A stretch of 64,000 bases of DNA from Myxococcota bacterium. GTDB taxonomy: Bacteria > Myxococcota > UBA4151. Positions 10,428-49,775 of the stretch are shown in pieces; within the stretch, counting starts at the first letter, position 1, and each line of letters starts with the position of its first letter. Both the position numbers and the translations under genes were made by a program. Location of the stretch: assembly GCA_040260805.1 (NCBI GenBank), contig JBDQPD010000002.1:2557-66556 (forward strand), in the 5' to 3' direction. The notes beneath the pieces were generated by a model, which worked only from the letters and a program-made list of their open reading frames with translations, made no database searches and was not told the DNA's origin.

Positions 10428-10430
10428 ACT

Positions 10431-11318: not shown

Positions 11319-11483
11319 AGCAATCGTGAAGTGCTCGTTACGGCGGTTCTTCAGGGCAGCCTCCTTGGCCGATGCGTTGAGCTAGGGTTTCGCAGTCGGC
11401 GCGCTCAAAGCGGCCGCTGGTCTTTCCTACCCCTTAGTCTAATCACATTTCACAACGGATCAAGAAGCAGTTCGGTGACCGCT

Positions 11484-12272
11484 TTATTCCACTTCGGCTG
11501 AAGTCGCCGATTCGTCGTCGATGTAAACGCACAACGCCGTGATGTTGTCCTCGCCACCGTGTGCGCAGGCGAGCTCGATCAGCAGCTTAGGACACTGTGC
11601 TGCAAAATGCCCACGCAGGACATCAGCGATCTCTTCGTCCGTCACCATCCCGTTGAGACCATCACTGCAAAGCAGCAGCAAGTCGCCGCGCTCGAGCGCC
11701 ACGTAGTACAGATCAACCTCAACCTCAGCGTCGACGCCGATCGATCGGGTGATGATGTTGCGGTATTGACTGACTCGGGCCTGCGCCTCGGTCATGAGAC
11801 CCAACCGCACCTGCTCAGCGACCAAACTATGGTCCATCGTGACTTGGTAGAGTTGGTCCTGCCGCAAAAGGTAAGCGCGAGAATCTCCCACATGCCCGAT
11901 AAAGGCTTGGTTTCCTAGGATCAGCACCGACGTTACCGTGGTGCCCATCCCTTGAAATTCCGGGTTATCTGCGCTGGTCTGAAACACCGTCGAATTAGCT
12001 TCTTGCATCGCCTGTCGCAAGGCGTTGACCGCCGGCGAGTTCTCACTTGGTTCGCCCGAGTGATCACCCTGCGTCATCAGGGCGTCGCGCTGCTCGATCA
12101 TTCGCTCGCGAACGATCTCCACAGACATCGACGATGCTTTCTCGCCTGCTCGGTGGCCACCCATACCGTCAGCAACAATAAACAGACCCAGGTCATTATC
12201 GACCAGGAAACTGTCTTCATTGCCTTCACGCACCAGCCCAATGTCGGTGGCTGCTGAGACGGTTAGCTCCAC
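11484..12272 (-). CDS. PP2C-family Ser/Thr protein phosphatase
   Basis: Motifs DGMGGHRAGEKAS, GTTV, SDGLNG, GGEDNIT. Confidence 0.85.
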   Translation of the reverse strand: MELTVSAATDIGLVREGNEDSFLVDNDLGLFIVADGMGGHRAGEKASSMSVEIVRERMIEQRDALMTQGDHSGEPSENSPAVNALRQAMQEANSTVFQTSADNPEFQGMGTTVTSVLILGNQAFIGHVGDSRAYLLRQDQLYQVTMDHSLVAEQVRLGLMTEAQARVSQYRNIITRSIGVDAEVEVDLYYVALERGDLLLLCSDGLNGMVTDEEIADVLRGHFAAQCPKLLIELACAHGGEDNITALCVYIDDESATSAEVE

Positions 12273-12415
12273 GCAGTTCTCCTAGCAGGGCGCGCCGGTT
12301 GCCATGGCGCCCATTGGCGAACAAGGAAATTGTTCTGGTAAGCTGCGTTTACCCGGTTGTTCGATGGCGCCCTCTTTTGTAGCGTTGCGGGGGCAATCCG
12401 TTCCCGGGGACTATC

Positions 12416-13174
12416 TTGGACTTTGCAACACTAGTCGGTCTGATCGCTGGTATCGGCTTAGTTACCAGCGCTATCGTCACTGGCGGCAATGCCATTATCT
12501 TCGTTAACCCACCCTCGTTGATGATCGTGGTGGGTGGAACGATTTCGGTCATTTTGATGAAATTCCCCGCCGGCGAGGTGTTTAATTCGCTCCGGGTCAT
12601 GAAAAATGCATTCTTTTTCCAAGCGCCCTCCGCCGTTGCAATCATCAATCAGATTATTGAAATGGCCATGCTGGCTCGAAAAGAAGGCGTGCTCGCTCTT
12701 GAAAGCGTTGAGCCCGAAGATGAATTCTTACGCTCAGGTATCCAGCGCGTCGTCGACGGCGTCGACACAGGTCACATCAAAAGAGCGATGAACCAAGAGC
12801 TCGACCAGATGGTGGCTCGTCATGACGTCGGCATTTCGGTCTTTAAAATGGGCGGAGATATCGCCCCAGCCTTCGGCATGATCGGAACCCTGATCGGGCT
12901 GGTGAAGATGCTGTCCTCGATGGAAGATCCGTCAGCGATTGGTCCGGCGATGGCGATCGCTTTGCTGACCACCCTCTATGGCGCTCTGATGGCTAATGTC
13001 TTCTTCTTACCGATCGCCGACAAACTGGCTTTTCGGTCAGAACAAGAGCTCTTCGCTCGAAAATTGATGGTCGATGGCATTCTGGCGATCGGCCGGGGAG
13101 AGACCAACCCCAATCAGCTCAAAACGATGCTCGGCGCCAACCTTGCGCCCAAGGAACGCGAGCAACTGGAGTAG
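12416..13174 (+). CDS. MotA/PomA-family stator proton-channel protein (AglR-like)
   Basis: 252 aa. Near-colinear with Vibrio PomA as I recall it (MDxATLxGLIxG...IVVGG...LMKF...DPxAIGPAMAxALLTTLYGA...PIADKL). Confidence 0.8.
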   Translation: MDFATLVGLIAGIGLVTSAIVTGGNAIIFVNPPSLMIVVGGTISVILMKFPAGEVFNSLRVMKNAFFFQAPSAVAIINQIIEMAMLARKEGVLALESVEPEDEFLRSGIQRVVDGVDTGHIKRAMNQELDQMVARHDVGISVFKMGGDIAPAFGMIGTLIGLVKMLSSMEDPSAIGPAMAIALLTTLYGALMANVFFLPIADKLAFRSEQELFARKLMVDGILAIGRGETNPNQLKTMLGANLAPKEREQLE

Positions 13175-13180
13175 GCGCTG

Positions 13181-14065
13181 ATGGAAGAGGAGCTCCCACC
13201 AGTCCTTGAGGACAGCGAACTCTTCGCTAGTGCTCATGAGACCATCGCAGCTGCGATCGCCGAGCTCGATGATGAGCCGGCTGTCAGTGCCATTCCTGAC
13301 GATGAATTCGACGACGAAGAAGAAAAGATACGCTACAAAAAAGTGTTCATCGGCGCGCCTATGTGGGTGGTGACCTTTGGCGACTTGATGAGTTTGCTGC
13401 TGACCTTCTTTGTGCTGATTCTAAGCTTCTCGACGATGGACCCGGTCAAGTTTAAGATCGTCCGAGGGTCACTAGACACGGCGTTAGGCATTCAAAAGAA
13501 GGTGACGGCGACCAGCGTCCCGCGCGCCGACAACATGATGGCGACCGAATTTAACCGACGCGACTTCAACAAACAGATTGAGAGCGTGCTCAAGAAGGCG
13601 CTGCGCGACACCTTCCCTCCAGGGCAAGAGCCCGGTCGTGTCGAGAAGGTGATCGATATTCGCGGTGAGGTCGTTCGCTTCATCGCATACGACCTCTTTT
13701 TACCGGGCAGCGAAGCGGACGCCCCTAAAGCCAAAACGGTCTATCAGGTGATGGCCGACACCTTGGTCCAGATGGAGGCTCGAATGGAGGTTCGCGGGAT
13801 CGCCCTCGAGCGCTTCTCGCGCGACCTTAGGCAACGCGGTCAAGCACGCGAAGATGGGGTCGTACCCGTTCGAGTCGCGGCTCGACGTGCGGTGATCGCT
13901 AGTCAAAAAGTCCAAAGCCGGCGGAAGCGCGAGATCAGCAGCCGAACGGTCCTACCTGCAGTCACTCCAGGTGTCGCTACACCCGAGCCTCCAGGCGTCG
14001 TGAACATGACCGAATTCGTGTTTCTAGCGCCTGATCGGGTGAGCGCTAAAGCGGGTAATCCATGA
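13181..14065 (+). CDS. MotB/TolR-like stator partner with acidic N-terminal extension and no recognisable peptidoglycan-binding domain
   Basis: TM plug motif APMWVVTFGDLMSLLLTFFVLILSFS is shared with the next gene. The periplasmic part is divergent. Confidence 0.6.
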   Translation: MEEELPPVLEDSELFASAHETIAAAIAELDDEPAVSAIPDDEFDDEEEKIRYKKVFIGAPMWVVTFGDLMSLLLTFFVLILSFSTMDPVKFKIVRGSLDTALGIQKKVTATSVPRADNMMATEFNRRDFNKQIESVLKKALRDTFPPGQEPGRVEKVIDIRGEVVRFIAYDLFLPGSEADAPKAKTVYQVMADTLVQMEARMEVRGIALERFSRDLRQRGQAREDGVVPVRVAARRAVIASQKVQSRRKREISSRTVLPAVTPGVATPEPPGVVNMTEFVFLAPDRVSAKAGNP

Positions 14066-14847
14066 CCAAAGTTGTACTTAAAGTCACTCGAGGAGCGCCC
14101 GCTTGGGTGGTGACCTTTGGCGATCTGATGAGCCTCCTGCTCACCTTCTTCGTGCTCTTACTGAGTTTCTCGCGTGTCTCGGTCTCGCAACGCTACCAAG
14201 AGGTCAACGGCACCTTGAAAAACGCCTTTGGCTTGGCTCAAACTAAAAATGTATCGCCACCATCAGCGATGGACCTCATCAAGATCACCGATGACTTTAC
14301 GATGACCGCAACCAAGATTGAAGAAGAGCTCCGTAAAGAGGTCGTGCCGCGCTATCCGCTCGACGAAAAGGAGATCGAAAAGCCTGAGGTTATCCGAAGA
14401 AAAGACCGGGTAATTCTGCGCTTCAACGGCGAGGCGATGTTTCCATCTGGAAAGCAAGAGATCGACCCGAGGTTTCATGCGTTTTTGGATGGGGTTGCGA
14501 CCAAAGCGGTGGCGAACCGAGTGAACACGATCATCGAAGCGCACACGGACAACGTCTCTTTTAGGACGCGGCTGTTTTCATCAAACAGTGACCTGAGCAT
14601 GGCTCGAGCGGCACAGGTTGCTGCCTACATCACGAGCGTTCAGCGTTTGCTGCCCTCTCGAGTTTTAGCCGTCGGAAAAGGACCTTATGAACCGTTGCAT
14701 CGCAACAACACGCGGGAGCGCCGGGCGATGAACCGGCGCATCGAAATTCAGTTCGTCGAAAATATGGCTGAAAAAGGTAGCCTTCGACTCGGAACTGATA
14801 AAGGCGTGCGCTTTGAAATCGGCGGTAAGAACAAAAAAGTCCCATGA
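14062..14847 (+). CDS. MotB/PomB-like stator protein with OmpA-type C-terminal peptidoglycan-binding domain
   Basis: APAWVVTFGDLMSLLLTFFVLLLSFS TM segment. C-terminal OmpA-like motifs (HTDNVSF...SNSDLSMARAAQVAAYI...RRIEI). ATGA overlap with the upstream gene. Confidence 0.75.
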   Translation: MTKVVLKVTRGAPAWVVTFGDLMSLLLTFFVLLLSFSRVSVSQRYQEVNGTLKNAFGLAQTKNVSPPSAMDLIKITDDFTMTATKIEEELRKEVVPRYPLDEKEIEKPEVIRRKDRVILRFNGEAMFPSGKQEIDPRFHAFLDGVATKAVANRVNTIIEAHTDNVSFRTRLFSSNSDLSMARAAQVAAYITSVQRLLPSRVLAVGKGPYEPLHRNNTRERRAMNRRIEIQFVENMAEKGSLRLGTDKGVRFEIGGKNKKVP

Positions 14848-15632
14848 TCTGGTTACTCAATCGAACCCATAGTGATGCGGCTCACCAGGCTGCTCAGGAT
14901 CTGCATCAGTTCGCTCTTGGTGAGGGTATTGAGTGTCGTATTTTAGAGCAAAGCAGCAACCCCAGCGCCGAGGACATGATGATCGTCCTCGGCGGCGATG
15001 GCACGTTGATTCAGGCTGCCAGGCGGTTCGCACATCTGGGCTTGAGGATGGTTGCGATCAACTTAGGCCGCCTCGGCTACATCACCAGCTTTAGTGCGGA
15101 TCAAGCTCGCTTTGCGCTCACTGCAGCGGCATCGGGAGCGCTGGTCGAGGATGTACGTCTGAGGCTGTCGGTTCGATGGGCAGACCAAGAAGCCGTCGCT
15201 CTAAACGAAGCCTTGATCACCTCAGGTCAGCCAGGACGTATCTGCTCACTAGCGCTTGCGATCGACGGCCAACCCGCCACCGCTTTGCGTGGCGACGGAG
15301 CTCTTGTGGCGACGCCGACCGGCAGCACCGCCTACGCCTTGAGCGCTGGTGGTCCTGTTTTACTGCCCGGGCTCCAGGCCTTAGTGGTGGTGCCCGTGGC
15401 GCCGCACTCGATTCGTTTTAGACCGCTCGTATTGCCGCCACAGCGAGTCCTGTCGATGCGTCCCGAAGAAGACGCATGGCTGGTGCTCGACGGCCAAGAG
15501 CGACTTCGGATTGAAGCCGGAACTGAAGTCACGCTCGATGGCACCGCGCCGGCTTTGCGCTTGCTCAAAGAGCCGTCCCATGAACACCTCGTGACGCTGC
15601 GCGACAAACTGCACTGGGGTGAATGGTCATGA
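14844..15632 (+). CDS. nadK: NAD kinase
   Basis: GGDGTL and NLGRLGYIT motifs. Conserved nadK-recN adjacency. ATGA overlap with motB. Confidence 0.85.
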   Translation: MIWLLNRTHSDAAHQAAQDLHQFALGEGIECRILEQSSNPSAEDMMIVLGGDGTLIQAARRFAHLGLRMVAINLGRLGYITSFSADQARFALTAAASGALVEDVRLRLSVRWADQEAVALNEALITSGQPGRICSLALAIDGQPATALRGDGALVATPTGSTAYALSAGGPVLLPGLQALVVVPVAPHSIRFRPLVLPPQRVLSMRPEEDAWLVLDGQERLRIEAGTEVTLDGTAPALRLLKEPSHEHLVTLRDKLHWGEWS

Positions 15633-35773: not shown

Positions 35774-37090
35774 ATGAGCGAGCGTATCGCGTTGGTTGAA
35801 GACGACCCTGGAGGTCGCAAGGTAGCGGCGGCTATGCTCGGTCGATCGGGTATGGACGTGGTCGCCTTCGCCAGCGCCGAAGACTTTTTACGGGTTCGGC
35901 CTGAGGTTTCGGTGGTGCTCACCGATCTGATGATGCCTGGGATCGACGGCATCGAATTGATGAAACAGCTCAAAGCGCAGCACGGCGATGACATCGAGGT
36001 CGTCCTCATCACCGCCTACGCAACGGCTGACGTGGCGGCTAAGGCGATGGCTGAGGGCGCCTTTCACTTTCTCACCAAACCGCTCGATCCTCAGCTTTTG
36101 GTCGAGACAGCAAAGCGAGCCGCTGAGCGGGTTCGACTGCGGAGCCGACTCGCTCGACTCGAAGACCGCCTAGCGACGTATGAAAGCCAAGAAATTGTAG
36201 GCGCCTCGAAAGCTATTGGAGAGCTCAAAGATCAATTGGCTCGACTCGCTCAAGCGGATCTCCCCGTCTTGGTCACCGGCGCCTCAGGGTCCGGTAAAGA
36301 GCTGGCAGCGAGGGCACTTCATCTGGGCAGTGAGCGGCGTGAAGAGCCTTTCGTTGCGGTCAACTGTGCCGCGCTGCCCGCTCAGCTTTTAGAGTCCGAA
36401 CTTTTTGGTCATTTACGAGGGGCATTCACGGGCGCTGAAACCCGCCGAAAGGGTCGGTTTCTTGAGGCACACGGCGGCACCTTATTCCTGGATGAAATTG
36501 GCGAAATGCCCTTGGGCTTGCAGGCAAAGCTCTTGCGCGTCCTTGAGCGTGGTGAGGTCACACCCTTAGGGGCTGACAAGCCACAGACCGTGAATGTTCG
36601 GCTAGTAGCCGCTACCAATCGAACCGATCTCGCCAGCGTGATGCGCGACGACCTTTATTATCGTCTTGCGGGGGCAGTGGTCGATGTACCCACGCTCGCT
36701 CAGCGGCGAGACGATGTGCCCATTTTGGTCGCTCATTTTTTATCTCGGCACGGATTAAGAGCGCCAAAACTTGGGGCTAAAGCACTAGAAGTGCTGCAAA
36801 ACTACAGCTGGCCGGGTAATGTTCGCGAGCTCGCGCACACTTGCGACCGACTCACGGCACTGTATCCGGGCGAGGACTTAGAAACCCTACCTGAAGCGCT
36901 TGATAACGATGCGAGTCCGGCGCGGCGCGGCTTGATTATCGATCCAAAATGGTCACTCGATGACATTCAAACCAAGGTCATCGAGTGGACGCTTGAACGC
37001 TTCGAGGGTAACCGGGCAGAAACGGCGAAGCATCTAGGTATTGGGGTAAGGACCCTTTACCGCCGGCTCAAGGACGACCCACCGGCCTGA
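35774..37090 (+). CDS. Sigma-54-dependent response regulator (NtrC family: REC + AAA+ + HTH)
   Basis: Receiver Asp (VLTDLMMPG), AAA+ Walker A GASGSGKE, GAFTGA sigma-54 contact motif, C-terminal Fis-type HTH. Start ATG 35774 with GAGGAA SD. Confidence 0.85.
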   Translation: MSERIALVEDDPGGRKVAAAMLGRSGMDVVAFASAEDFLRVRPEVSVVLTDLMMPGIDGIELMKQLKAQHGDDIEVVLITAYATADVAAKAMAEGAFHFLTKPLDPQLLVETAKRAAERVRLRSRLARLEDRLATYESQEIVGASKAIGELKDQLARLAQADLPVLVTGASGSGKELAARALHLGSERREEPFVAVNCAALPAQLLESELFGHLRGAFTGAETRRKGRFLEAHGGTLFLDEIGEMPLGLQAKLLRVLERGEVTPLGADKPQTVNVRLVAATNRTDLASVMRDDLYYRLAGAVVDVPTLAQRRDDVPILVAHFLSRHGLRAPKLGAKALEVLQNYSWPGNVRELAHTCDRLTALYPGEDLETLPEALDNDASPARRGLIIDPKWSLDDIQTKVIEWTLERFEGNRAETAKHLGIGVRTLYRRLKDDPPA

Positions 37091-39920
37091 GCTCGCCAAA
37101 AGTTCGAAGCGATGATGCTCGCTGACGCGCCATCGTGTTAAACAGATCAGAACCCCAGCACCACACGCTGCCATCGCTTCGTCGAGCGCAAGCGTGTAAC
37201 GCACCGATAGCCACCTCCTCGGCTTGGGTTAGCCCCTCAACCGAGACCGGGCTTCGCCGATGGTTCACACCCGCGTCACCGCAGACGCCAAAGTCGTTGC
37301 GACCCCAACACGACACCTCGCCGGCGCCATCAACAGCGCAGGTGTTGTATTCACCAGCGGCGATCTTCTCGATCCCGTCAAGTGACTCAACCGGAACCGG
37401 TCGCCTTCTGCTCGTTCCGGTTCCATCGCCAAGCTGCCCCAACGCATTGTAGCCCCAACAAAAAACACGACCATCGCGACCCAGACCGCAGTGATGATAA
37501 CGCCCTGACGTGAGCGTAGTAATCGATGACAGGTCCGCTGTAGGGCCGGCGGTCCAGCGTGATTGATTTTGTCCATCACCGAGCTCGCCAGCGCTGTTGT
37601 TACCCCAGCAACTGACCGTTCCATCGGTGTGCAATGCGCAGGTCGAGCGTTGCCCAGCGCTGATGGACGTTACGTCCACAAGATCGCGCACGGCGGTGGG
37701 TGACTGGCGACGTCTATTGGTGCCATCGCCGAGGTTACCAAAGGCATTATATCCCCAGCAGACGGCCGTCTGATCAACCGTCAGCGCACAGCTAAAGTCG
37801 CGCCCGAAACCAAACCGATCAAAGGGGCGCAAAGCCGGCACCTCGACGGCTCGGTCTCGACTGCTCACGGTGCCATCGCCGAGCTGTCCATTGGTGTTGA
37901 GACCCCAGCAAAATACGCTCCCATTTTGGGCCTTACCGCAGGTGTGCGCGCCGCCAGATGCTAAGGTGACGATGGGCTGATCGAGCCCAGCAACAGCTCG
38001 CGCTTCACCGACGCCCAACCCCAGCGCGCCGAGCGAGCCGTAATAGTTTCGTCCCCAACATGAGACCTCGCCTTCGCTGTCCAAGCTGCAGGTGTGAAAC
38101 AAAGACGAGGCGATCTGAATCGAGCCCGAGAGACCATGGACGGGCTCGGCGATTTGACCAAACCCACCTTTAGCGTCGCTGTGCGTTTCACCCCAGCGGT
38201 CGAGGCCCCAACACAACCGAGAACCGCTTTGGGTGGTGACGCAGCTGTGGTCGTAGCCCAGCGCCAGGGTCTCAACGCCAGCGATCTGGAAACTGCGCAC
38301 GGGCACACGACGACTCGAACGACTTCCATCGCCGAGCTGTGCATAGGCGTTGCCGCCCCAACAAAACACTTCGGAAGAGGCGCTGAACGCGCAGCTATGG
38401 CTCAAGCCAGCTCCGACCCCAATCATCGGAGGCAACCCGACCACACGCACCGGTCGACGTTGATTCGCCACGCTGCCGTTACCGAGCTTACCTTCGGCGC
38501 CTTGTCCCCAGCACCACACCGCCCCGTCGCCTGTGACGGCGCAGGTGTGATGGGCTCCTGCCGCAAGACTCGTGACACCGCTCAAGCCGACGACGTCACG
38601 CGCCACGCGCGAGTTCGCTGTCCGGTCGTCGCCGAGCTGCCCTAAATCGCCTCGACCCCAGCAGCGCACGGTGCCATCGCTCAGCAAAACACAGCTGTGT
38701 TCGGCGCCTAAAACCATATCCTCAATCACATCGATTCCGTGCACCGGAACCGGCCAGACCATGTACTGATTTCCGGAGTTCGGGTCACCGAGCTGCCCGC
38801 GGTTGTTGTGGCCCCAGCAAAGGGCGTTTCCGTTGGCCATGATCGCGCAGCTGTGGTGGTAGCCACAGCGAACCGACTGAGCACCTTCGGGCAACAAAAC
38901 CTGTTGCGGCTGTGGCTGCGCGTCGTTTCGTCCCATGCCGAGTTGCCCGAGATCATTTTTCCCAAAGCAATGCACTTCTCCATCGGCTTCACGAGCGCAA
39001 GTGTGCGCTTGTCCCAGGCAAAAATCGGTCACGTCCGCCAGCGCTTCGATCGACTGAGGACGGCGCGAGCCTTCGGACGGACCAATACCCAGCTGACCAT
39101 CAACCCCGCGGCCCCAGCAGGCTAAAACGCCCTCTTCATTCAACTGACACGCGTGTTCATAGCCTGCTTGGACACGCCCTGGCTGGCCCTCTCGCTGGCA
39201 GTCTACCCCGCAACCGTCGCCCGGTAGGTCGTTGCCGTCATCGCAACCCTCGACGCCTTCCATCACAAAAGAGTCACCACATTCAGCTTGAGCGCAATCC
39301 GCGAGACACTCGTCAGTGTTCGAGTCGTTGCCGTCATCGCAGGCTTCCTCGCCAGCCCAGACCACCCCATCGCCGCAGCGCGCCTGAGCGCACAATCCGG
39401 TGCAGTCATCTTCATCGGTCTCATTACCATCATCGCAGGCCTCGACGCCTTCGTGGACGAAGCCGTCACCGCAAGCGGCGAGTCGACAATCTTGCAGGCA
39501 CTCATCGCTGCTTGACGCGTTGCCGTCATCGCATGCTTCGACGCCTGCGTGCACAAAACCGTCACCGCAGCGAGCGGCTAAACAGGCTGAGGTGCACTCA
39601 TCATCATCGCTTGAGTTGCCATCGTCGCAGACCTCGCGAAGCTGCATCACACCGTCGCCGCATGAAGCGAGCACACAAGTGCTCAGGCAGTTGTCCGTAT
39701 CGTCTGCGTTCCCATCGTCGCAGCCTTCACCGGCCTGGACCAGACCATCACCGCAAGCCGCAAGTTGACACGCATTAGAGCAAGCGTCGTTGGCGACCAG
39801 GTTGCCGTCATCGCAGGTTTCGCCAGGGTCGATTTCTCCGTTGCCGCAAAGCAATGCTGCGCTGTTGCTACCGCATCCAGCAACACCAACCAAAACGCCT
39901 ATCGCCAACCATTTATGCAT
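37068..39920 (-). CDS. Lipoprotein with six N-terminal myxo-type Cys-rich repeats (CGDG...CDDGN) followed by ~10 RCC1 beta-propeller repeats
   Basis: Lipobox VAGCGS after start MHKWLAIG. Repeats ACGDGxVxxGExCDDGNxxxxDxC occur six times. RCC1 blades (CWGxNxxGQLGxG) follow. 23-nt convergent overlap with the regulator gene. Confidence 0.75.
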   Translation of the reverse strand: MHKWLAIGVLVGVAGCGSNSAALLCGNGEIDPGETCDDGNLVANDACSNACQLAACGDGLVQAGEGCDDGNADDTDNCLSTCVLASCGDGVMQLREVCDDGNSSDDDECTSACLAARCGDGFVHAGVEACDDGNASSSDECLQDCRLAACGDGFVHEGVEACDDGNETDEDDCTGLCAQARCGDGVVWAGEEACDDGNDSNTDECLADCAQAECGDSFVMEGVEGCDDGNDLPGDGCGVDCQREGQPGRVQAGYEHACQLNEEGVLACWGRGVDGQLGIGPSEGSRRPQSIEALADVTDFCLGQAHTCAREADGEVHCFGKNDLGQLGMGRNDAQPQPQQVLLPEGAQSVRCGYHHSCAIMANGNALCWGHNNRGQLGDPNSGNQYMVWPVPVHGIDVIEDMVLGAEHSCVLLSDGTVRCWGRGDLGQLGDDRTANSRVARDVVGLSGVTSLAAGAHHTCAVTGDGAVWCWGQGAEGKLGNGSVANQRRPVRVVGLPPMIGVGAGLSHSCAFSASSEVFCWGGNAYAQLGDGSRSSRRVPVRSFQIAGVETLALGYDHSCVTTQSGSRLCWGLDRWGETHSDAKGGFGQIAEPVHGLSGSIQIASSLFHTCSLDSEGEVSCWGRNYYGSLGALGLGVGEARAVAGLDQPIVTLASGGAHTCGKAQNGSVFCWGLNTNGQLGDGTVSSRDRAVEVPALRPFDRFGFGRDFSCALTVDQTAVCWGYNAFGNLGDGTNRRRQSPTAVRDLVDVTSISAGQRSTCALHTDGTVSCWGNNSAGELGDGQNQSRWTAGPTADLSSITTLTSGRYHHCGLGRDGRVFCWGYNALGQLGDGTGTSRRRPVPVESLDGIEKIAAGEYNTCAVDGAGEVSCWGRNDFGVCGDAGVNHRRSPVSVEGLTQAEEVAIGALHACARRSDGSVWCWGSDLFNTMARQRASSLRTFGELRPVGRP
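39180..39880. repeat. Intragenic tandem DNA repeats (~90-nt unit, about 6 copies) encoding the Cys-rich modules of the RCC1 lipoprotein
   Basis: Recurrent gttgccgtcatcgcaggc...tcgacgcc units seen directly in the sequence. Confidence 0.6.
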
Positions 39921-40022
39921 ACTTCGTCCAAGCCCTTGGAAGTCGCTAGTTTGAGCGAACTTGGATCGGCGATCAAGCCGCGCCGCTGTTGGTGATCTGG
40001 GCCCCAAAACCTTAGACCGGTG

Positions 40023-41624
40023 TCAACCCAGCAGCGAACTAAAGAAATCGTTCCCTTTATCGTCCACGATGATGAACGCTGGAAAATCCTTAACCGTGAT
40101 CCGATGGACCGCTTCCATGCCAAGCTCAGGCATATCGATGACTTCAATCTTGGTGATGCAATCGGCACCGAGACGCGCAGCAGGGCCACCGATCGAGCCG
40201 AGATAAAATCCACCATGCTCGCGACAGCTTTCAGTGACCTGGGCGCTGCGGTTACCTTTTGCTAAGGTCACTAAAGAGCCTCCGAGCGACTGAAACAAAG
40301 GCACATAGGGGTCCATTCTTTGCGCCGTGGTCGGCCCAAAACTCCCCGACGGTAACCCCTCTGGAGTTTTCGCCGGCCCGGCGTAGTAGATCACCGAATC
40401 AGCGAAGTAATCAGGCATCGCCTCGCCCGCCTCGATCCGCTCACGAATCCGAGCGTGGGCGATGTCACGAGCCACCGTGATCTCGCCGCTGAGCAAAAGA
40501 CCGGTGCCGACGCTGTGCTGCGTTAACTCGGCTCGAAGCGCCTCCAAACCTCGGTTTAAATCAATCGCAACCATCGACTCTGCGACTTCGCCTTCAGCCC
40601 ATAATCGCTCGGGGTGACGCTCGAGTTCTTCGAGAAAGACTCCATCTCTAGTGATCTTCGCTTTGATTTGTCGGTCTGCCGAGCAGCTAACACCCAGCCC
40701 AACGGGACATGATGCACCGTGACGAGGCAAACGAATTACTCGAGCTTGATGGGCAAAGTACTTCCCGCCAAACTGAGCACCGATTCCCGTTTTTGAGGCT
40801 AAATCGAGCACGCGTTGTTCCCAATCAATGTCACGGAATGCTCGCCCGGTCTCGTCACCTGAGGTCGGAAGTGAATCGAGATAGCGGGTTGAGGCGAGCT
40901 TAACCATTTTGAGGTTTTGTTCGGCGCTCGTTCCCCCAATCACCAAGCTGAGGTAGTAAGGCGGGCACGCAGCCGTCCCCAAACTCTTGATTTTTGCCTC
41001 GATAAAAGCCGTCAAATCGCGCTCATTGAGGAGGCTTTTGGTCTGCTGATACAAATACGTTTTGTTCGCCGAACCGCCGCCTTTTGCCATAAATAAGAAC
41101 GTATACTCTTCGCCTTCGACGGCCGCTAAATCAATCTGAGCGGGAAGGTTGTTCCCAGTATTTTTCTCCTGAAACATCGTCAGCGGTGCGAGTTGCGAAT
41201 ACCGTAAATTGTTCTCGGCATAGGTGCGCTCAATCCCAGCCGTAAGTGCAGCCTCATCTCCACCCCCAGTCCAGACCTGACCACCCTTTTTGCCCATCAC
41301 GATCGCCGTCCCTGTGTCCTGACAACTCGGCAAAACGCCTCGGGCGGCGATCGTTGCATTCTTGAGCAACTCGCGCGCCACAAACCGATCGTTTTCGCTG
41401 GCCTCGGGGTCACGCAAAATATCGGCTAGGCTTCTTAGATGCGACGACCTGAGGAGATGGGACACGTCGCGCATCGCTTCGGTCGCTAACGCGGTCAATG
41501 CGGCGGGGTCGACCTTGAGAATCGTACGCCCCTCAAACTCAGCGTGTTTAACGTAATCACCATCAAGGCGACGATAAGGCGTATCGTCACCACCCAAGCG
41601 AATAATTGGCTGATAATCGCTCAT
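40023..41624 (-). CDS. Class I (Fe-S) fumarate hydratase
   Basis: 533 aa, colinear with FumA/FumB-type two-domain fumarase. Start ATG 41624 (MSDYQP), 2 nt after the upstream stop. Confidence 0.9.
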
Positions 41625-41625
41625 T

Positions 41626-42183
41626 TTACTCCCAAACCCCACGCCGATTTTGGCGCGCTAGATCCTCGGCATTGAGATAAGCCCCTAACCGATCGAACAA
41701 CTCATTATTAAATCGGTAAACACGAGCGAGCCCCTCTTCGAGCAGCTCCTCGCCCAGATCACCGCCATCGCTCAGTCGAACATGCGCAAGCATTCGGCAG
41801 TAGCGATCAAAACAGGCCTGACCGTCGCGCCCTTCTTGGCAAGCCCCAAAGGGGTCGGTGCACAAAGAGTCCCACTCCAAGCCGACCTGGATGCTCGCTC
41901 GACTCACGGCGAAGTTGAGCGCATCTTGGGCGAAGGGCTCGGGCTCTGAGCCCACCTCATCATAATTCATCTCGGGCGTGTTCAGCCCCTTAAGCCGGAC
42001 TCGAAAAACACGATCTTGGCGCCGGACCTCAAGAGTGTCGCCGTCGATAAAGCGCTCAACCGTGACCGGCTCGGCTAAATCTACCGGGGCTCCAGCGTCC
42101 GGTACAGGGTCGGGTTCCGGCATCGGGCCACAGCCCATGATCAACACCAAGCCCAAGCAGCGCCACATCATCAAGGTCTCCAC
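41626..42183 (-). CDS. Secreted lipoprotein, staphylococcal-nuclease (SNase/thermonuclease) family, with 4-Cys insertion
   Basis: Lipobox LIMGCG. SNase motifs [29 protein letters not shown]...EGLARVY, and RGVWE all align to nuclease A catalytic regions. Confidence 0.75.
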
Positions 42184-42320
42184 TCACTGCGTTGGGCCTG
42201 CCTCGGCTCACCCTTTGTGTAAAGTATACCGGTCAACCTGAGGACCAAGCGGCCCTTGCACCAAGCGTTCAAGACTCCTAAACAGCCGCGGTTCCCTTAA
42301 CGTTTCTGCTGGAGCAGACC

Positions 42321-43262
42321 GTGACCCGTCTTGTCCTCATGGTGACCCTAACCTTTCTAGCGCAGCAGGCGCTGGCGAGCGAGCCGCGCACCAAAGTTGT
42401 AGTCAATGGCTTGATGTCACCGGTCTATTTCAATGATGGGGACACCTTTAGAGTGTTGTCCGGACAGCTCTCGGGGACCAAGGCTCGGCTCGAGGGCTTT
42501 AATACGCTTGAGTCCTTTGGACCGGTCCACAGCTGGGGCTCATGGAGCACACGCGAGCTCTACGTCAACGCCAAGACCGCCACCTTGCACGCAAGGCGGG
42601 GCATCTGGCGCTGTTCGTGGGATCAACGAGTCGATGGCTATGGCCGCGGGCTGTTCAAATGCCCAGAGCTCGCCATCCACATGATCCGGACGGGCATGGC
42701 GCACGCGATGACCGTCACCGCCCAGCCCTCCCCAGAGATCTACCTTGAGGCGCAGCGCGAGGCGATCAAACATCGGCGCGGGATGTGGGCCGGCGGCGTG
42801 CCGAAATATGTCCTCACCTCGCTGCACTCAGTGGACGAAAAACCCAATCAGAACTGGGCGTACAACCGTCTGGTCTCAACCCATGATGGGCACTCCGAGC
42901 GCTGGATTCATAGCGAGACCTACGGCGAATGCCACAACGTCTGCGTGCAAGAAGTCCAGCTCAGCAGCGCCACCCTCAAAGAGGTTAAACAGCGCCTGGA
43001 CTCGGTCGCCGAGCTCACGACCTGGCAAACGCTTGGGGCGCGCAAACAAGTTGAGGTTTTAGAGATCTACCTCATGGTCAACACCGTCTCAGCGCATATC
43101 CCCAAAGCTGAACGCGACCTGATGCGTCAAGCGCTCACGCAGCTGGTCGATACCGGCTTGCTCGTCGCCGAGAAAACCACGCCGGGCGGCTGCATGATCT
43201 ACACCGACTTTCGCCGTCGCTTTGGCGGCGGTAAAGCGACCTGTCTGAAGCTGGCGCGATGA
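42321..43262 (+). CDS. Secreted two-domain protein: N-terminal SNase-family nuclease plus a conserved ~130-aa C-terminal 4-Cys domain of unknown function
   Basis: GTG start with GGAGC SD and a signal peptide. NDGDTFRV...ARLEGFNTLE...DGYGRGLFKCPELAIHMIRTGMAHA...RRGMWA. The C-terminal domain is shared with gene 62293..63057. Confidence 0.7.
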   Translation: MTRLVLMVTLTFLAQQALASEPRTKVVVNGLMSPVYFNDGDTFRVLSGQLSGTKARLEGFNTLESFGPVHSWGSWSTRELYVNAKTATLHARRGIWRCSWDQRVDGYGRGLFKCPELAIHMIRTGMAHAMTVTAQPSPEIYLEAQREAIKHRRGMWAGGVPKYVLTSLHSVDEKPNQNWAYNRLVSTHDGHSERWIHSETYGECHNVCVQEVQLSSATLKEVKQRLDSVAELTTWQTLGARKQVEVLEIYLMVNTVSAHIPKAERDLMRQALTQLVDTGLLVAEKTTPGGCMIYTDFRRRFGGGKATCLKLAR

Positions 43263-44623
43263 AGTATTTTCTTCCCTTTATCTTAGCCGCTTGCAGCTAC
43301 GACATGCCGACTCGGCCGGTCCAAGGGTACGAATTTGATGACGCCGCCTGTTCGGACGGTATCGATAATGACCAAGACAGCCTGACCGACTGCGAAGACC
43401 CTGACTGTTTGGCGCTGTCAACGCACTGCGGACAACAAGTCCCGGTGGTTCCCGATGGACGCGCCGAAGAGGGTATGTTGTGCCGCGACCAGATCGATAA
43501 CGACGACAACGGGCAGTTCGACTGCGGCGACCCTGCCTGCCGTGAGCAGATGGAGAACTGCTGCGTCTTAGAATTTTCAAACGAAGCGTGCTCTGACGGC
43601 ATCGACAACGACCAAAACGGGTTCACCGACTGCGCGGATTTCGCATGCCGCATGGGCATCTTTGTCACCGTTTGCTTTGAAGGTGACAGTTCAAGCTGCA
43701 GTGACGGTCTCGATAACGACGGCGACGGCGACATCGACTGCGCCGATTCATCCTGCGCTCGAGAGGCGTCGTGCTCGAATGATTGCGAAGGGCTGCCTGA
43801 GGGCATCGAAGACACCGTTGAGAAGTGCACAGACGGCTGCGACAACGACGGCAACGGCTACGCGGACTGCCGAGACCTCAGCTGCTCTCAGAGTCAAAAC
43901 CCGGCGATTGTGGACGCCTGCACGCCCGACCGCGGCGACGAGAACACGCTGGCTCGCTGCACCGACGGCGTCGACAACGACGACAACGGCTTTATCGATT
44001 GCAACGACTTCTCGTGCTCGAGAAGCCAAGATCAGGCCATTTTAGACGCCTGCGCTGAGCGCATGGAGAACACTCTTGAGCGCTGCGGTGACGGGATCGA
44101 TAACGATGACAACGGCTTTGTCGATTGCAACGACTTCTCCTGCTCAAGAAGCGATGACCCGGAGATCGTAGCGCTCTGCGCTGCGAGCGCCGAAGACTCG
44201 ATAGAGGCTTGCTCTGACGGTCAGGACAATGACGGTAACGGCTTTATCGACTGCGACGATTTCAGCTGCTCTCAATCGGACAACCCAGAGGTATCCGGCC
44301 TGTGCGGCGGCGCGGCAGAGGCGAGCTTTGAGACCTGCTCTGATGGCGTCGATAACGACAACAATGGATACACCGATTGTGCCGACTGGTCGTGCCGGAA
44401 CGCTGAAGATGCGGTGGTGCGTCAAGCCTGCCAAGAGTCGGTGTATCGACCCGATTTCATGGGTATTCCGGCGGGTCCTCAAGAGACCGCTCGAGCCAAC
44501 GCCTTTTGCGAAGATGGACTAGACAACGATGGTGATGGCTATGCCGACTGTGCCGATTGGGACTGCAGTTGGAACCCTTTAGTCACCGTGTGCGACGGAC
44601 CCCGAGTCTGTGAGGAACGCTGA
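43259..44623 (+). CDS. Lipoprotein composed of ten tandem ~21-aa acidic 3-Cys repeats (C-x-D-G-x-D-N-D-x-[DN]-G-x-x-D-C-x-D-x-x-C), putative Ca2+/metal-binding
   Basis: Lipobox ILAAC. Ten repeat copies counted by eye. ATGA overlap with the upstream nuclease gene. Confidence 0.7.
   Translation: MKYFLPFILAACSYDMPTRPVQGYEFDDAACSDGIDNDQDSLTDCEDPDCLALSTHCGQQVPVVPDGRAEEGMLCRDQIDNDDNGQFDCGDPACREQMENCCVLEFSNEACSDGIDNDQNGFTDCADFACRMGIFVTVCFEGDSSSCSDGLDNDGDGDIDCADSSCAREASCSNDCEGLPEGIEDTVEKCTDGCDNDGNGYADCRDLSCSQSQNPAIVDACTPDRGDENTLARCTDGVDNDDNGFIDCNDFSCSRSQDQAILDACAERMENTLERCGDGIDNDDNGFVDCNDFSCSRSDDPEIVALCAASAEDSIEACSDGQDNDGNGFIDCDDFSCSQSDNPEVSGLCGGAAEASFETCSDGVDNDNNGYTDCADWSCRNAEDAVVRQACQESVYRPDFMGIPAGPQETARANAFCEDGLDNDGDGYADCADWDCSWNPLVTVCDGPRVCEER
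43330..44580. repeat. Intragenic tandem repeat array (~60-130-nt units) encoding the CxDGxDNDxDGxxDCxDxxC modules
   Basis: Recurrent tgctctgacggcatcgacaacgac... units seen directly in the sequence. Confidence 0.6.
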
Positions 44624-46140
44624 TGAAGCTCTGGATGCTCTTATTGATGTTGTTGGCGAGCCCCGCCTTTGCCGCCGAGACCGCCTGCGACGATGGTCAA
44701 GATAACGACGCCGATTCGATGATGGACTGCGCCGATGCCGACTGCGCGCAGGCAGCCAATTGCCAGCCAACCGGCGCCTCCGAGAACACGGACGCGCTGT
44801 GTTCGGATTGGATCGACAACGACGGCAACGGGCAGATGGATTGCGACGATGTCGCCTGCTTTGGTGCAGGCATCGTCGCTTGCCTGGGAAGCTTTGAGCG
44901 CAAATCAGGCGTCGCGGTGCAAACGATGGCGCCGGTCGCGCCAGCCCAAGCCGCTCAAGCCGCCGGCGCATCGAGCGCCAATGCGCCGAGCGAAGCCGAC
45001 CTCAAAGCGAAGGACAACAACGGCGAACGCAACGACCTGTTGTGTTCAGATGGTATTGATAACGATGGCGACGGGGCCGTTGACTGCGCCGATTATGGCT
45101 GCCGCTTCGATCCGACGGTGACGATCTGCCAGGGCGCTCCAGGCATGCGCTTCTCGATCGTCGGTAATGTGGCGCAAAGCTTTGACATCGAAGCCGATGA
45201 GCATGACACCCGCTTTACCAAGCTGCAGCTGCGCAGCTTTGGACCGATCCCGCTGATCCAAAACAGCTTCTACTTGGTCTCGATGCGGGCTGAAAAAACG
45301 CCTCGTTTAACCTTTGCTTTGTTCCAGGTTCCCTTAGGCGGTGGTCATTACCTCAACTTGAACTCCGGCGGCGGCGGGCTCTCCAACGCGTTGATCGTCT
45401 CCACCGCAAAGCAGCTCTTAGGCGACCCAGCCTACTACCTGTATTCAGCCTTTGAACAAGGCAACGGAGCGGCTGCCGAGCTCGGTGGGCCGGTCCCTTA
45501 TGTTCCGGCGGGTAAGATGAACTACCGACTCTTCGCAGCGGGCGGTTCAGGGCGCTTCTCAGGTAACATCGGCGGCCGTTACTTCACCTATGAAAACACC
45601 AACTACACCTACTCTGTAGGTGGCCAAGTCAGCGCCAACTTGATCGGCTTTACCAGCCGCTGGGACTCGCCCTTCTTGATGAGCCCAAGCGCCACCGCTG
45701 TGGCGGTTCGAGTCGGCGGGAAATACGACCGGCGTGCGCAGGAGCGCTACCCCGCATTCAACGCCGGAATCTCGGCGCGTCACGGTCGCTTCGTGGTGAT
45801 GCTTGAGGACTATTATAAGCGAGAGCTTAACTTTGGTTCGGTGCAAAATGCCTACAACGTGACGCTCGGCGCTTTGGTGCTCAAAAACAAGCTCATGGCT
45901 GCCGCTGATTTCGGTCAGTTCCTTGCCACCGACTTCACCAACCCGCCGGACCAACTACAGACCGATCTGAAAAAGATTAGAGATGAGACGCAGTGGCGCG
46001 CCGCGCTGCACTACTACTTTAGAGGCAACATCGGTTTGCTGAGCCTAATCTATTCGGATCATCGCCTAGCAGCCAACGAGGCAGGCAAGGACCCGGAGCG
46101 TAAACACAGCATCAAATTGGTGGCTCAATATCGCTTCTAA
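44623..46140 (+). CDS. Putative outer-membrane beta-barrel protein with three N-terminal CxDGxDND repeats
   Basis: Signal peptide MKLWMLLLMLLASPAFA. Three repeats, an Ala/Gln-rich linker, then ~350 aa of alternating beta-strand pattern ending in the aromatic terminus ...VAQYRF. 1-nt overlap (TGATG) with the upstream gene. Confidence 0.6.
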   Translation: MKLWMLLLMLLASPAFAAETACDDGQDNDADSMMDCADADCAQAANCQPTGASENTDALCSDWIDNDGNGQMDCDDVACFGAGIVACLGSFERKSGVAVQTMAPVAPAQAAQAAGASSANAPSEADLKAKDNNGERNDLLCSDGIDNDGDGAVDCADYGCRFDPTVTICQGAPGMRFSIVGNVAQSFDIEADEHDTRFTKLQLRSFGPIPLIQNSFYLVSMRAEKTPRLTFALFQVPLGGGHYLNLNSGGGGLSNALIVSTAKQLLGDPAYYLYSAFEQGNGAAAELGGPVPYVPAGKMNYRLFAAGGSGRFSGNIGGRYFTYENTNYTYSVGGQVSANLIGFTSRWDSPFLMSPSATAVAVRVGGKYDRRAQERYPAFNAGISARHGRFVVMLEDYYKRELNFGSVQNAYNVTLGALVLKNKLMAAADFGQFLATDFTNPPDQLQTDLKKIRDETQWRAALHYYFRGNIGLLSLIYSDHRLAANEAGKDPERKHSIKLVAQYRF

Positions 46141-46169: not shown

Positions 46170-49100
46170 ATGCAACGCAGTCGTATCGATCGGTTCCAAC
46201 GCCGGCTTAAACAAAAAGTCATGGTTCTTGATGGTGCGATGGGCACCATGATTCAAGCCTATAATCTCGGTGAAAGCGACTTTCGCGGCAGCATATTATG
46301 CGATCACGATCACCCGCTTGCCGGCAATAATGACCTGCTGAGTCTAACCCAGCCAGAGATCATCTTAGCGATCCACCGCGCCTATCTCGAAGTGGGCGTG
46401 GATCTGATCGAGACCAACACCTTTAATTCCAACGCCATCAGCCAGTCAGACTACGGCCTCGAGGACAGAGTCTACGAGCTCAACAAAGCCTCGGCAGAGC
46501 TCGCCGTTCAGGCGTGCTCAGAATTCAGCACCGCAGAGCACCCGCGCTTTGCGGTGGGGGTTTTAGGACCGACCAACCGCACGGCTTCCTTGAGTCCAAA
46601 AGTCGAAGACCCGAGCGCTCGCAACGTCACCTTCGATGAGCTCGATCAAGGGTACCGCACCGCAACGCAAGGTTTGCTCGATGGTGGCGCCCAGGTTTTA
46701 ATGATCGAGACGATCTTTGATACGCTCAACGCCAAGGCGGCTATTTACGCGATCGAGAAGGTCTTCCAGGCGCGCAATGAGCGCTGGCCGGTGATGATAT
46801 CAGGCACGATTACCGATGCATCGGGGCGCACCTTATCGGGTCAAACCAGCGAGGCATTCGCTCGCTCCGTAGCCCACGCTGAACCGGTCAGTGTCGGCTT
46901 TAATTGCGCCTTAGGCGCCGAGCAGCTCAGGCCCTACATCTCGGAGCTCAGTCGCTGGGCACCCTTTGCGGTCTCGGCTCACCCCAACGCAGGGCTTCCC
47001 AACGCGCTGGGTGATTACGACGAGAGCCCCGAAGAGATGTCAGCTCAGATTGGGGCTTGGGCAAAGGATGGGCTACTCAACATCGTCGGTGGCTGCTGTG
47101 GCACGACCCCCGAACACCTCAAAATGATCGTCGACGCCGTCGGCGATCACGCACCGCGGCAGCTCAAGCCGGCGAGCTCGTTGTCCGATTATGCTGGGCT
47201 TGAGCCCTTGCAACTCAAAGACGATGCGCTCTTCGTAAACATTGGTGAGCGGACCAACATGACGGGCTCGGCGCGCTTTCGAAAACTCATCGAAAACGAT
47301 GACTTCGAAGCCGCCATTGCGATCGCTCGACAACAGGTTGAGGGCGGCGCACAAATTCTCGACATTAACTTCGATGATGCGTTGATCGACGGCACCGCCT
47401 CGATGATACGCTTTTTGAACCTGCTCGCCGGCGAGCCCGACATCGCTAAGCTGCCCTTCATGGTCGACAGCTCGCGCCCTGAAATTCTCAACGCCGGACT
47501 GCGCTGTGTACAAGGTAAGGCGATCATCAACTCGATCTCACTCAAAGAGGGTGAAGCCGCTTTTCTAGCCGCAGCTGATGAAGCCAAAAACTTAGGCGCT
47601 GCGATGGTCGTGATGGCCTTTGATGAAGACGGGCAAGCCGACACCTATGAGCGGCGAATCAGCATCTGTGAGCGAGCGTATAAGCTCCTGGTTGAGACCG
47701 CTCAGGTCCGAGCACATGACATCATCTTTGATGCGAATATTTTTGCGGTGGGCACCGGACTTGACGAGCATCGTCGTTACGCCATCGATTTCATCGAAGC
47801 TGTGCGCTGGATCAAAACGAATCTACCGGGCGCCAAGACCAGCGGCGGGTTGAGCAACCTGAGTTTTTCGTTTCGTGGTCAAAACCCGCTGCGCGAAGCG
47901 ATGCATACGGTATTTTTGTACCACGCAGTCCAAGCGGGGCTGGATATGGGCATCGTCAACGCCGGCGCCTTGCCAGTCTACGATGACCTCGACTCAGGTT
48001 TGATTGAGCGCATTGAAGATCTTCTCTTTGACCGCCGTGATGATGCGACCGACCGCCTTTTAGAGCTCGCCCACAAAGCGCAAGGGCGGGCTGCGCGCGC
48101 TGCGGACCTAAGCTGGCGCGAACAAGACGTCACCGCACGAATAAGCCACGCCTTGGTTCAGGGCATCGACGCCTACATCGAAGAGGATACCGCTGAGATC
48201 TTTGCCGAACTCGACTCGGCGATCGGGGTCATCGAAGGACCGCTTATGGACGGCATGAACCGGGTTGGTGACCTGTTTGGCGAGGGGAAGATGTTCCTCC
48301 CTCAAGTGGTCAAGTCAGCGCGGGTCATGAAGCGCGCCGTCTCGTGGCTTGACCCCTATCTTAAAGCGGGCGCCCAGCTTGAATCCAAAGGCGTGATCTT
48401 ACTCGCTACCGTCAAAGGCGACGTGCACGATATTGGGAAAAATATCGTCGGCGTGGTCCTCGAATGCAACGGCTATCGAGTGATCGATTTAGGCGTCATG
48501 GTTCCCTGCGACCGGATTCTTGACCAAGCCCTTGAGCATCAAGTCGACCTGATCGGCTTGTCCGGATTGATCACGCCGAGCCTCGATGAGATGGTTCATG
48601 TCGCCAAGCAGATGACGGCGCGCGGGATGAAGACCCCCTTACTGATCGGCGGCGCCACCACCTCACCGCTTCACACCGCGCTGCGGATTGAGCCCGAATA
48701 CGCCCCTGGTGTGGTCCACGTTCGCGACGCCTCGCGCAGCGTAGCGACCACCAGCTCGCTCTTGAACGACCGGGCAGATTTTGTCGCTCAAACCGGAGAA
48801 AATTACGCCAAACTCAGGCGGCGCCACGAGTCCAACACCCAGCGACAAAAACTGCTCTCACTTGAGGAAGCGAGGCGGCGCGCCGAGCGCGTTGACGCAC
48901 CAGCGCCTGTTCCCAAGACGCTCGGTCTGCACCACCTCGATGTTTCGCTGTCGGATCTACTGGTCACCATGGACTATGCTCCATTTTTCCACGCCTGGGA
49001 GTTCAAGGGATCCTTCCCAGCCCTGCTCAACGATGTCAGGCAGGGTGAGGCGGCGACAGCGCTGTGGAACGATGGACAAGCGATCCTGAAGCGAATTGTC

Positions 49101-49775
49101 GATGAGGACCTACTGACCGCCAAAGCGAGCTTCGCCATCTATCCAGCTCACGCTGCCGGTGAGACGATCTTTATCGACACACCGCAGGGCATGGAGCGCT
49201 TCGAGTTTTTACGCCAACAACGCGGCAAATCGCCAGCGTGCTTAGCCGACTACATCGCTCATGAAGACGATCACATCGGTATGTTTTGGGTGACCGCAGG
49301 GCTAGGGCTTGATGCCCTAGTCGCCGAGTACGAAGCCCAAGATGACACCTACTCTTCGCTCATCGCCAAGGCCTGGGCCGACCGATTTGCCGAGAGCTTA
49401 GCCGAATGGCTACACCGCGAGGTTCGGACGCGTTATTGGGGCTATATCGCCGATGAGACCTTGAGCGTGGATGAGCTGCTGGCTGAGCGCTATCGGGGGA
49501 TACGCCCAGCTCCAGGCTACCCTGCGTGCCCAGACCATCGCCATAAAGAGCGCATGTATCGCCTGCTTGAGGCGGAGGAAATGGGCGCATCGCTAAGCGA
49601 GAGCTGTGCCATGACGCCTGCGGCTAGTGTCGCCGGATTCTACATCGCAGCGCCCCAATCGCGCTACTTTAGCATCGGCCGAATCGATGAAGAACAGCTG
49701 GCTGATTTGGCGCGTCGGCGCGGTGAGCCCATCGAGACCTGCGCACGCTGGCTTGCGTCGCTCTTGCTTAACTAA
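46170..49775 (+). CDS. metH: Cobalamin-dependent methionine synthase MetH
   Basis: 1201 aa with Hcy-binding, pterin-binding, B12-binding (DxHxxG) and AdoMet-activation domains colinear with MetH. Confidence 0.95.

Follow-up and report, generated by a model that had tools for sequence, protein, structure and literature searches.

A 64,000-nucleotide stretch of DNA from a Myxococcota bacterium (contig JBDQPD010000002.1; hereafter, the window) carries three tightly coupled genes, designated here B, C and D, which encode a secreted protein with a staphylococcal nuclease (SNase) fold, a lipoprotein built largely of acidic, cysteine-rich repeats and a predicted outer-membrane porin that bears three copies of the same repeat. 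B-C-D is a conserved envelope cassette of Polyangia-type and uncultured Myxococcota. We propose, with a probability of roughly 45 per cent, that the cassette is a Ca2+-dependent nuclease–porin module that handles nucleic-acid fragments at the outer membrane. Each component is of a familiar type (a nuclease of the SNase kind, a porin and a disulfide module that binds Ca2+). We found no earlier report of the three joined in a fixed set of genes: literature searches returned no description of the cassette, in agreement with a preliminary description of this DNA, made from the sequence alone, that knew of no described system with such an arrangement.

All three genes lie on the forward strand. Gene B (42321..43262) encodes a 313-amino-acid (aa) predicted SNase-fold phosphodiesterase, which has a Sec signal peptide and is not a lipoprotein; gene C (43259..44623) encodes a 454-aa lipoprotein; and gene D (44623..46140) encodes a 505-aa predicted outer-membrane protein with a signal peptide (AFA/AE). 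The B/C junction is an ATGA overlap and the C/D junction a TGATG overlap. The four open reading frames of the preliminary description (these three and the divergent gene A, discussed below) and both overlaps match our coordinates exactly. Its interpretation as a whole is partly supported: the parts of the operon are as it had them, whereas its surface placement of the proteins is improbable and its count of cysteines per repeat did not hold.

The order of the three genes is invariant. Among the matches listed in a scan of GTDB genomes, 25 loci have a full-length D, and B is followed by C and then by D in 21 of the 21 loci with enough upstream DNA. A complete chromosome of 9.3 Mb has the same order, and so do two D lineages that have diverged to 36–39 per cent identity; searches that started from B added the cultured Paraliomyxa miuraensis (GCA_026337845.1, JAOVZF010000142.1), a chromosome of 11 Mb and a lineage with a short B. 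Altogether, none of the 27 loci examined departs from this order. They come from uncultured Myxococcota, Polyangiaceae, Nannocystaceae, Sandaracinus and the cultured Paraliomyxa; the check on neighbourhood conservation that the preliminary description had called for thus finds the three operon genes co-conserved. All C orthologues keep the lipobox and a 'GYE' motif and carry 6–14 repeats, and nearly all D orthologues carry three. Myxococcia and Bradymonadia gave repeat-level matches only, among the matches listed. No further neighbour of B-C-D is conserved across the loci; the fumarase, MetH and RCC1 protein genes that flank the cassette in the window are not kept.

The mature N-terminal half of B, which follows a cleavable signal peptide (…ALA/SE), is an SNase domain of the OB-fold type (42390..42800, residues ~24–160). 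NCBI and JGI label the 917 homologues of B as 'thermonuclease family' or 'YncB', and many homologues at 45–50 per cent identity pass the Pfam SNase model (PF00565). In a 30-member alignment of the B family, residues D39, D41, R56, T62, E64, Y107 and R109 are invariant, and they align with D19, D21, R35, T41, E43, Y85 and R87 of the Staphylococcus aureus nuclease (Nuc). The Ca2+ ligand D40 is replaced by an asparagine (N61 in the window), which is likewise invariant across the 30 aligned members. A pair of cysteines (C98/C114) lies inside the domain. Compared with the SNase family (PF00565; S. aureus Nuc and Nuc2, E. coli YncB-type), the N-terminal half of B and the protein encoded by gene A share the OB-type fold and the catalytic and Ca2+-binding residues D21, R35, T41, E43, Y85 and R87, so that the residues in question are properly aligned in both proteins apart from the change of D40 to Asn. 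Identity between B and Nuc is about 22 per cent.

Unlike other SNases, B continues into a family-specific extension of about 150 residues (42801..43259, residues ~161–313) with four cysteines (C204, C208, C291 and C308) and a terminal C-L-K. The preliminary description had called B a secreted SNase-domain protein with a C-terminal four-cysteine region, and the signal peptide, the fold and the four cysteines are all present. The extension is strongly conserved, with the motifs TSLHS…E, YNRLVS, DGHS, ExC…VC and, at the C-terminus, …RRFGGxxAxCLK. It consists of a beta segment (TSLHS…YNRLVS…DGHS…ExC…VC), a helical insert at about residues 215–280, and a final strand with a basic tail that reads …RRFGGGKATCLK. 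As a profile, it matched nothing in PDB or Pfam, and no occurrence was found outside the B family. Short, 235-aa variants of B lack the helical insert and keep the beta segment and the tail. A role of the conserved tail in docking or sorting is possible. In nearly all B orthologues the last residues are exactly …RRFGGxxAxC-L-K, to which the B of the window adds L-A-R (43215–43259, residues 299–313); confidence in the structural model falls at this basic, cysteine-containing tail. B also stands apart from described SNases through its genomic setting: it is fixed in an operon whose other genes encode a repeat lipoprotein and a porin, and we found no such arrangement described for any SNase in the literature.

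The product of gene C has a lipobox (ILAAC, Cys12, with Ser at +2), contains 45 cysteines and is 24 per cent Asp plus Glu. Its repeat array (43349..44593) comprises ten tandem acidic modules of four cysteines each, putatively Ca2+-binding, with the first cysteines at residues 31, 75, 111, 147, 190, 234, 276, 318, 360 and 417; at the DNA level, a 126-nucleotide tandem array spans units 6–8. The N-terminal region of D (44686..45129) holds three further repeats and a linker: repeats 1 and 2 occupy residues 22–87, an Ala/Pro-rich linker of low model confidence spans 92–121 and repeat 3 occupies 141–169. When the 64-kb window is translated in all six frames, the motif C.D..D[ND]D.[DN]...DC.D..C has 13 matches, ten in C and three in D, and none elsewhere. 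The repeat spacing is C-x13-C-x4-C-x5..11-C. Because a fourth cysteine follows 5–11 residues after the third, the unit is a four-cysteine module; of the ten three-cysteine repeats previously described in C, the number stands and the cysteine count does not.

Both proteins match the NCBIfam model NF033662, 'acidic double-disulfide repeat' (cut-off 41 bits), C with 271.4 bits over ten stretches and D with 88.9 bits over three. The model covers the repeat alone and carries no functional assignment; it is silent on an operon, a porin fusion or a nuclease partner, and we found no description of the function of the repeat family in the literature. The preliminary description had pointed to a MopE-like repeat instead. 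That family (PF11617) and the thrombospondin type-3 repeat (PF02412) gave no Pfam match in C or D at E <= 0.1, nor in 35 D homologues at E <= 10.

The repeats also match the C-rich domain of teneurins, which is extracellular: the single sequence of C matches 6cmx and 7plp (E values of 3e-4 to 6e-4), and a profile of the D family matches the C-rich domain of teneurin-4 (7plp, E = 8e-7) with all four cysteines in register. In a 1.5 Å structure, the teneurin domain octahedrally coordinates three Ca2+ ions through E835, D840, D843, N844, D845, D847, D851, D854 and D856, and contains the disulfides C838-C857, C852-C863 and C858-C869 (PMC9058538). The two families have in common the core string CxDGxDNDxDGxxDCxDxDC, and cysteines 1-3 and 2-4 of the bacterial repeat align with C838-C857 and C852-C863. 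The positions of D840, D843, N844, D845, D851 and D854 are invariant in 13 of 13 repeats and that of D847 is Asp or Asn, whereas those of E835 and D856 are kept solely in C repeats 1 and 10 and, in part, in D repeats 1–3. Overall, 90 of 117 ligand positions are kept over the 13 repeats, with D repeats 1, 2 and 3 keeping 9/9, 7/9 and 8/9. By homology, we infer that the C and D repeats bind Ca2+; given the loss of E835 and D856, the number of ions per internal unit is probably below three. There are differences as well. The teneurin domain has six cysteines (disulfides 1-3, 2-5 and 4-6), whereas the bacterial unit has four, which align with teneurin cysteines 1, 2, 3 and 5; and the teneurin domain occurs once, as a linker in an adhesion receptor of eukaryotes, whereas the bacterial modules form arrays of ten and three in a lipoprotein and a porin. 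The teneurin C-rich domain is also related to thrombospondin type-3 repeats, to the Ca2+ sites of LDL-receptor A modules and to the MopE-like 'putative metal-binding motif'.

The remainder of D is a beta-barrel (45148..46137, residues 176–504). Its predicted model (predicted local distance difference test [pLDDT] score, 76.5) has 16 long strands, an L3-like conserved loop of 34 residues (249–282) after strand 5 and a C-terminus ending in …YRF; the strand number, long loop 3 and C-terminal aromatic residue are those expected of a 16-strand porin fold. With three NF033662 stretches ahead of the 16 predicted strands, the preliminary reading of D as an outer-membrane barrel with three N-terminal repeats is borne out. 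The barrel has connection lengths of 97 residues on one side against 39 on the opposite one, which fits the canonical porin topology and would place the N-terminus and the three modules of D in the periplasm. The nearest folds are OprP (2O4V), followed by DcaP, PorB, VhChiP and Omp32. Pfam searches of D and 35 homologues and a PDB profile search revealed no sequence-level link to porin families, and phmmer, run exhaustively with the barrel by itself against 1.84 billion representatives, recovered only the family itself, in 62 clusters at 50 per cent identity. The more than 719 homologues of D are all labelled 'hypothetical' and all come from Myxococcota-type sources, and identity within the family is still above 50 per cent through approximately the top 100 clusters. 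Unlike known 16-strand porins, D is confined to Myxococcota-type genomes, and its N-terminal extension of Ca2+ modules is unique. Lumen-facing positions, inferred from the periodicity of the strand sequences and not from coordinates, are very highly conserved and charge-balanced (11.6 K/R versus 11.3 D/E), which argues against an arginine ladder of the OprP type. We considered OprP-like phosphate selectivity of D and rejected it, as there is a fold match only, with neither a family link nor an arginine ladder.

Divergent from the cassette, gene A (41626..42183, reverse strand) encodes a 185-aa lipoprotein SNase, as the preliminary description had it; the assignment is confirmed by a Pfam SNase score of 51.7 bits (cut-off 21) and the lipobox LIMGC. 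The protein matches thermonucleases in PDB (E ~ 3e-6), and the equivalents of S. aureus D19, D21, R35, T41, E43, Y85 and R87 all align. The equivalent of D40 is Asn, and Asp stands there in an orthologue (41 per cent identity) that occupies the same divergent position upstream of B at locus L083. Like S. aureus Nuc and Nuc2, A and B are exported; A is lipid-anchored and Nuc2 is surface-attached. Gene A has no counterpart in the flanks of most other loci, and so it is an accessory gene outside the conserved unit, found beside the cassette in some lineages only, and not the module member that it had been taken for. Nevertheless, small lipoprotein SNases directly adjoin the cassette at four loci (the window, L083 and two from Sandaracinus), and in both Sandaracinus loci the gene immediately follows D in the same orientation. 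Among the contextual evidence for a role in nucleic-acid handling, this repeated clustering ranks first.

Further genes surround the cassette at L083. On its reverse strand (2680-4580), the A orthologue is followed by a 388-aa lipoprotein full of acidic double-disulfide repeats, and a few kb away, downstream of the cassette (10137-15206, forward strand), lie genes for a lipoprotein with an LTD domain (771 aa), a third SNase (a lipoprotein of 160 aa) and an HHH_3 protein of 755 aa. These surroundings look like a small 'DNA-handling' neighbourhood.

How the proposed nuclease–porin module would work can be outlined as follows. Where present, accessory lipoprotein SNases such as A might generate fragments outside the cell. 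D would be the pore that admits nucleic-acid fragments, with its three Ca2+ modules hanging into the periplasm, and B, a soluble nuclease that requires Ca2+, would act at the periplasmic face, reducing these fragments to 3'-nucleotides or short oligonucleotides. Once loaded with Ca2+, the modules of C and D would assemble together, possibly also with the conserved basic tail of B, and this assembly would keep B beside the pore in a Ca2+-rich environment. In Myxococcus xanthus, lipoproteins are sorted to the outer membrane by default, with Lys at +2 and Ala at +7 marking the exceptions (PMC3222651). Since C has neither, it would be anchored in the outer membrane under this rule. The purpose of the module might be the scavenging of nutrients or phosphate, or else the clearing of DNA from the periplasm.

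Several observations weigh against the proposal. B scores 19.3 bits against the Pfam SNase model, below the cut-off of 21, over residues 117–157 only; together with the replacement of D40 by Asn, this means that its activity and metal affinity could differ from those of known SNases. Porins of 16 strands let only small solutes through, so that nothing beyond short oligonucleotides would enter, and the charge-balanced lining of the D pore gives no sign of specificity for anions or phosphate. Upstream of B, no Pho-box-like or other common motif was found across 22 loci, where k-mer enrichment did not exceed that of shuffled controls, and genes for a phosphatase, a nucleotidase or a nucleoside transporter are not conserved nearby. 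B could also be exported past the outer membrane instead of acting beneath it.

The same parts might serve a purely architectural function, in which D is a major structural porin, C forms with it a Ca2+-stabilized scaffold or tether under the outer membrane, much as in porins with periplasmic N-terminal extensions, and B is a periplasmic housekeeping nuclease that shares the operon incidentally, or a non-nucleolytic binder. We find this doubtful: it leaves unexplained the invariant catalytic site of B, the translational coupling and the co-conservation in 27 of 27 loci, as well as the repeated settling of SNase genes beside the cassette, and Pfam searches of the cassette proteins and D homologues detected no peptidoglycan-binding domain. 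If D were instead a phosphate or polyphosphate porin like OprP/OprO, B could free phosphorylated products under phosphate limitation. Despite the similarity of fold, we judge this idea improbable: the D family has no match to Porin_O_P or OprP/OprO, even as a profile (PF07396 was not matched by Pfam in D or 35 homologues, and no OprP/OprO chain appeared at E <= 10 in the PDB profile search); the lumen charge is balanced, with no arginine ladder; and the loci have neither a common upstream regulatory motif nor conserved Pst, Pho or phosphatase genes nearby.

In keeping with the 'surface complex' of the preliminary description, C could be exposed on the cell surface via the barrel of D, its modules binding prey, matrix or kin in a Ca2+-dependent manner while B is released. 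A lipoprotein gene coupled directly upstream of a barrel gene recalls known lipoprotein–barrel pairs, such as Slam with its surface lipoproteins and RcsF with OmpA/C/F, and the homologous teneurin module is extracellular. M. xanthus, moreover, sends some lipoproteins to the matrix (PMC3222651). However, the loop parity of porins puts the N-terminal repeats of D in the periplasm, C has Thr and not Ala at +7 and hence no M. xanthus signal for export to the matrix, Pfam gave no match to Slam/DUF560 or any other family, and a folded, disulfide-bonded protein is too large for a 16-strand pore; we accordingly give surface display very little weight. It could finally be argued that unrelated genes for secreted proteins with a common repeat adjoin each other by chance, as the repeat family is widespread in unrelated proteins and taxa and the flanking genes vary. 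The synteny survey effectively refutes this: the 27 loci, deeply diverged as they are, all keep order, orientation and tight spacing, codons overlap in several of them, and D always has about three repeats while C always has many. We also rejected membership in a defence system, as B, C and D matched none of the PADLOC anti-phage defence models; A matched only a generic SNase-containing candidate model.

Under the nuclease–porin proposal, the logic would be that of Vibrio cholerae, in which the products of the exported nucleases Dns and Xds cross to the periplasm and meet periplasmic phosphatases (PMC4714964). Such systems for using extracellular DNA consist of scattered genes of other families, whereas the cassette unites a nuclease, a porin and a Ca2+-module lipoprotein in a single fixed operon with no linked phosphatase. 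A further-reaching version, which we regard as unlikely, is that the cassette is an unrecognized lineage-wide machine of the outer membrane in which porin and lipoprotein join through their teneurin-type arrays, which also dock and activate the nuclease at the periplasmic mouth of the pore, a 'nucleic-acid feeding port'; if true, it would serve bacteria that live on lysed prey or detritus, and a bacterial counterpart of the teneurin C-rich domain would have its first function.

The cassette is present across a large share of non-Myxococcia Myxococcota, and hundreds of its members are labelled 'hypothetical' by every source. If the nuclease–porin proposal is correct, these ecologically important predators and degraders would have a dedicated envelope route for nucleic-acid use, the widespread NF033662 repeat would gain a function, and a tractable bacterial model would become available for the role of the teneurin C-rich domain in Ca2+-dependent assembly. 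A fairly ordinary alternative, a periplasmic nuclease with a porin, remains plausible.

The near-identity of the repeat core to the teneurin core also matters for the question of where the teneurin C-rich domain came from. Tucker et al. found the same core consensus in teneurins and a diatom enzyme, remarked on its likeness to the MopE motif and proposed a diatom or algal origin of the domain (PMC3278476). Teneurin-like proteins have been reported from more than 20 per cent of Myxococcota species (PMC13018210). The bacterial core, for example CSDGIDNDQDSLTDCEDPDC, is almost the same string as the teneurin/diatom C-rich core. Given this near-identity and the abundance of NF033662 in bacteria, a bacterial origin of the teneurin domain may deserve re-examination. 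The repeat module is far more widespread than the cassette: among the matches listed, repeat-only matches of the NF033662 type (loci L022-L080) come from Fibrobacterales, Nitrospirae, Desulfococcus, Saprospiraceae, Reichenbachiella and archaeal-labelled bins.

As for the surroundings of the cassette, the divergent A–B intergenic region (42184..42320, 137 nucleotides) is presumed to hold promoters and has no defined motif; no sigma-70-like site was predicted in it, and promoter and terminator prediction within the cassette gave nothing convincing. The gene for MetH (46170-49775) begins 29 nucleotides past the stop codon of D with no terminator-like site predicted between them, so transcription may read through from the cassette into metH here; this adjacency is not conserved at other loci. 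On the other side, the listed start of a class-I fumarase open reading frame (40023-41642, reverse strand) overlaps the 3' end of gene A by 17 nucleotides, and the two are therefore probably co-transcribed in this genome, an arrangement not seen at other loci. Elsewhere, two Nannocystaceae-type loci carry a DUF6484 gene divergently upstream of B (L084, 5005-5502; L085, 4953-5465; both reverse strand), a lineage-specific feature, and in a divergent lineage a DUF4266-DUF3570 pair (L082, 1631-2919, forward strand) precedes the cassette by about 1.2 kb, an interval that holds two unannotated genes. Two genes away from the cassette in the window (37068-40007, reverse strand) is the gene for a 979-aa protein with an apparent lipobox (VAGC), which combines seven copies of a different cysteine-rich acidic repeat (TIGR02232 myxo_disulf_rpt / DUF4215) with a large RCC1 beta-propeller.

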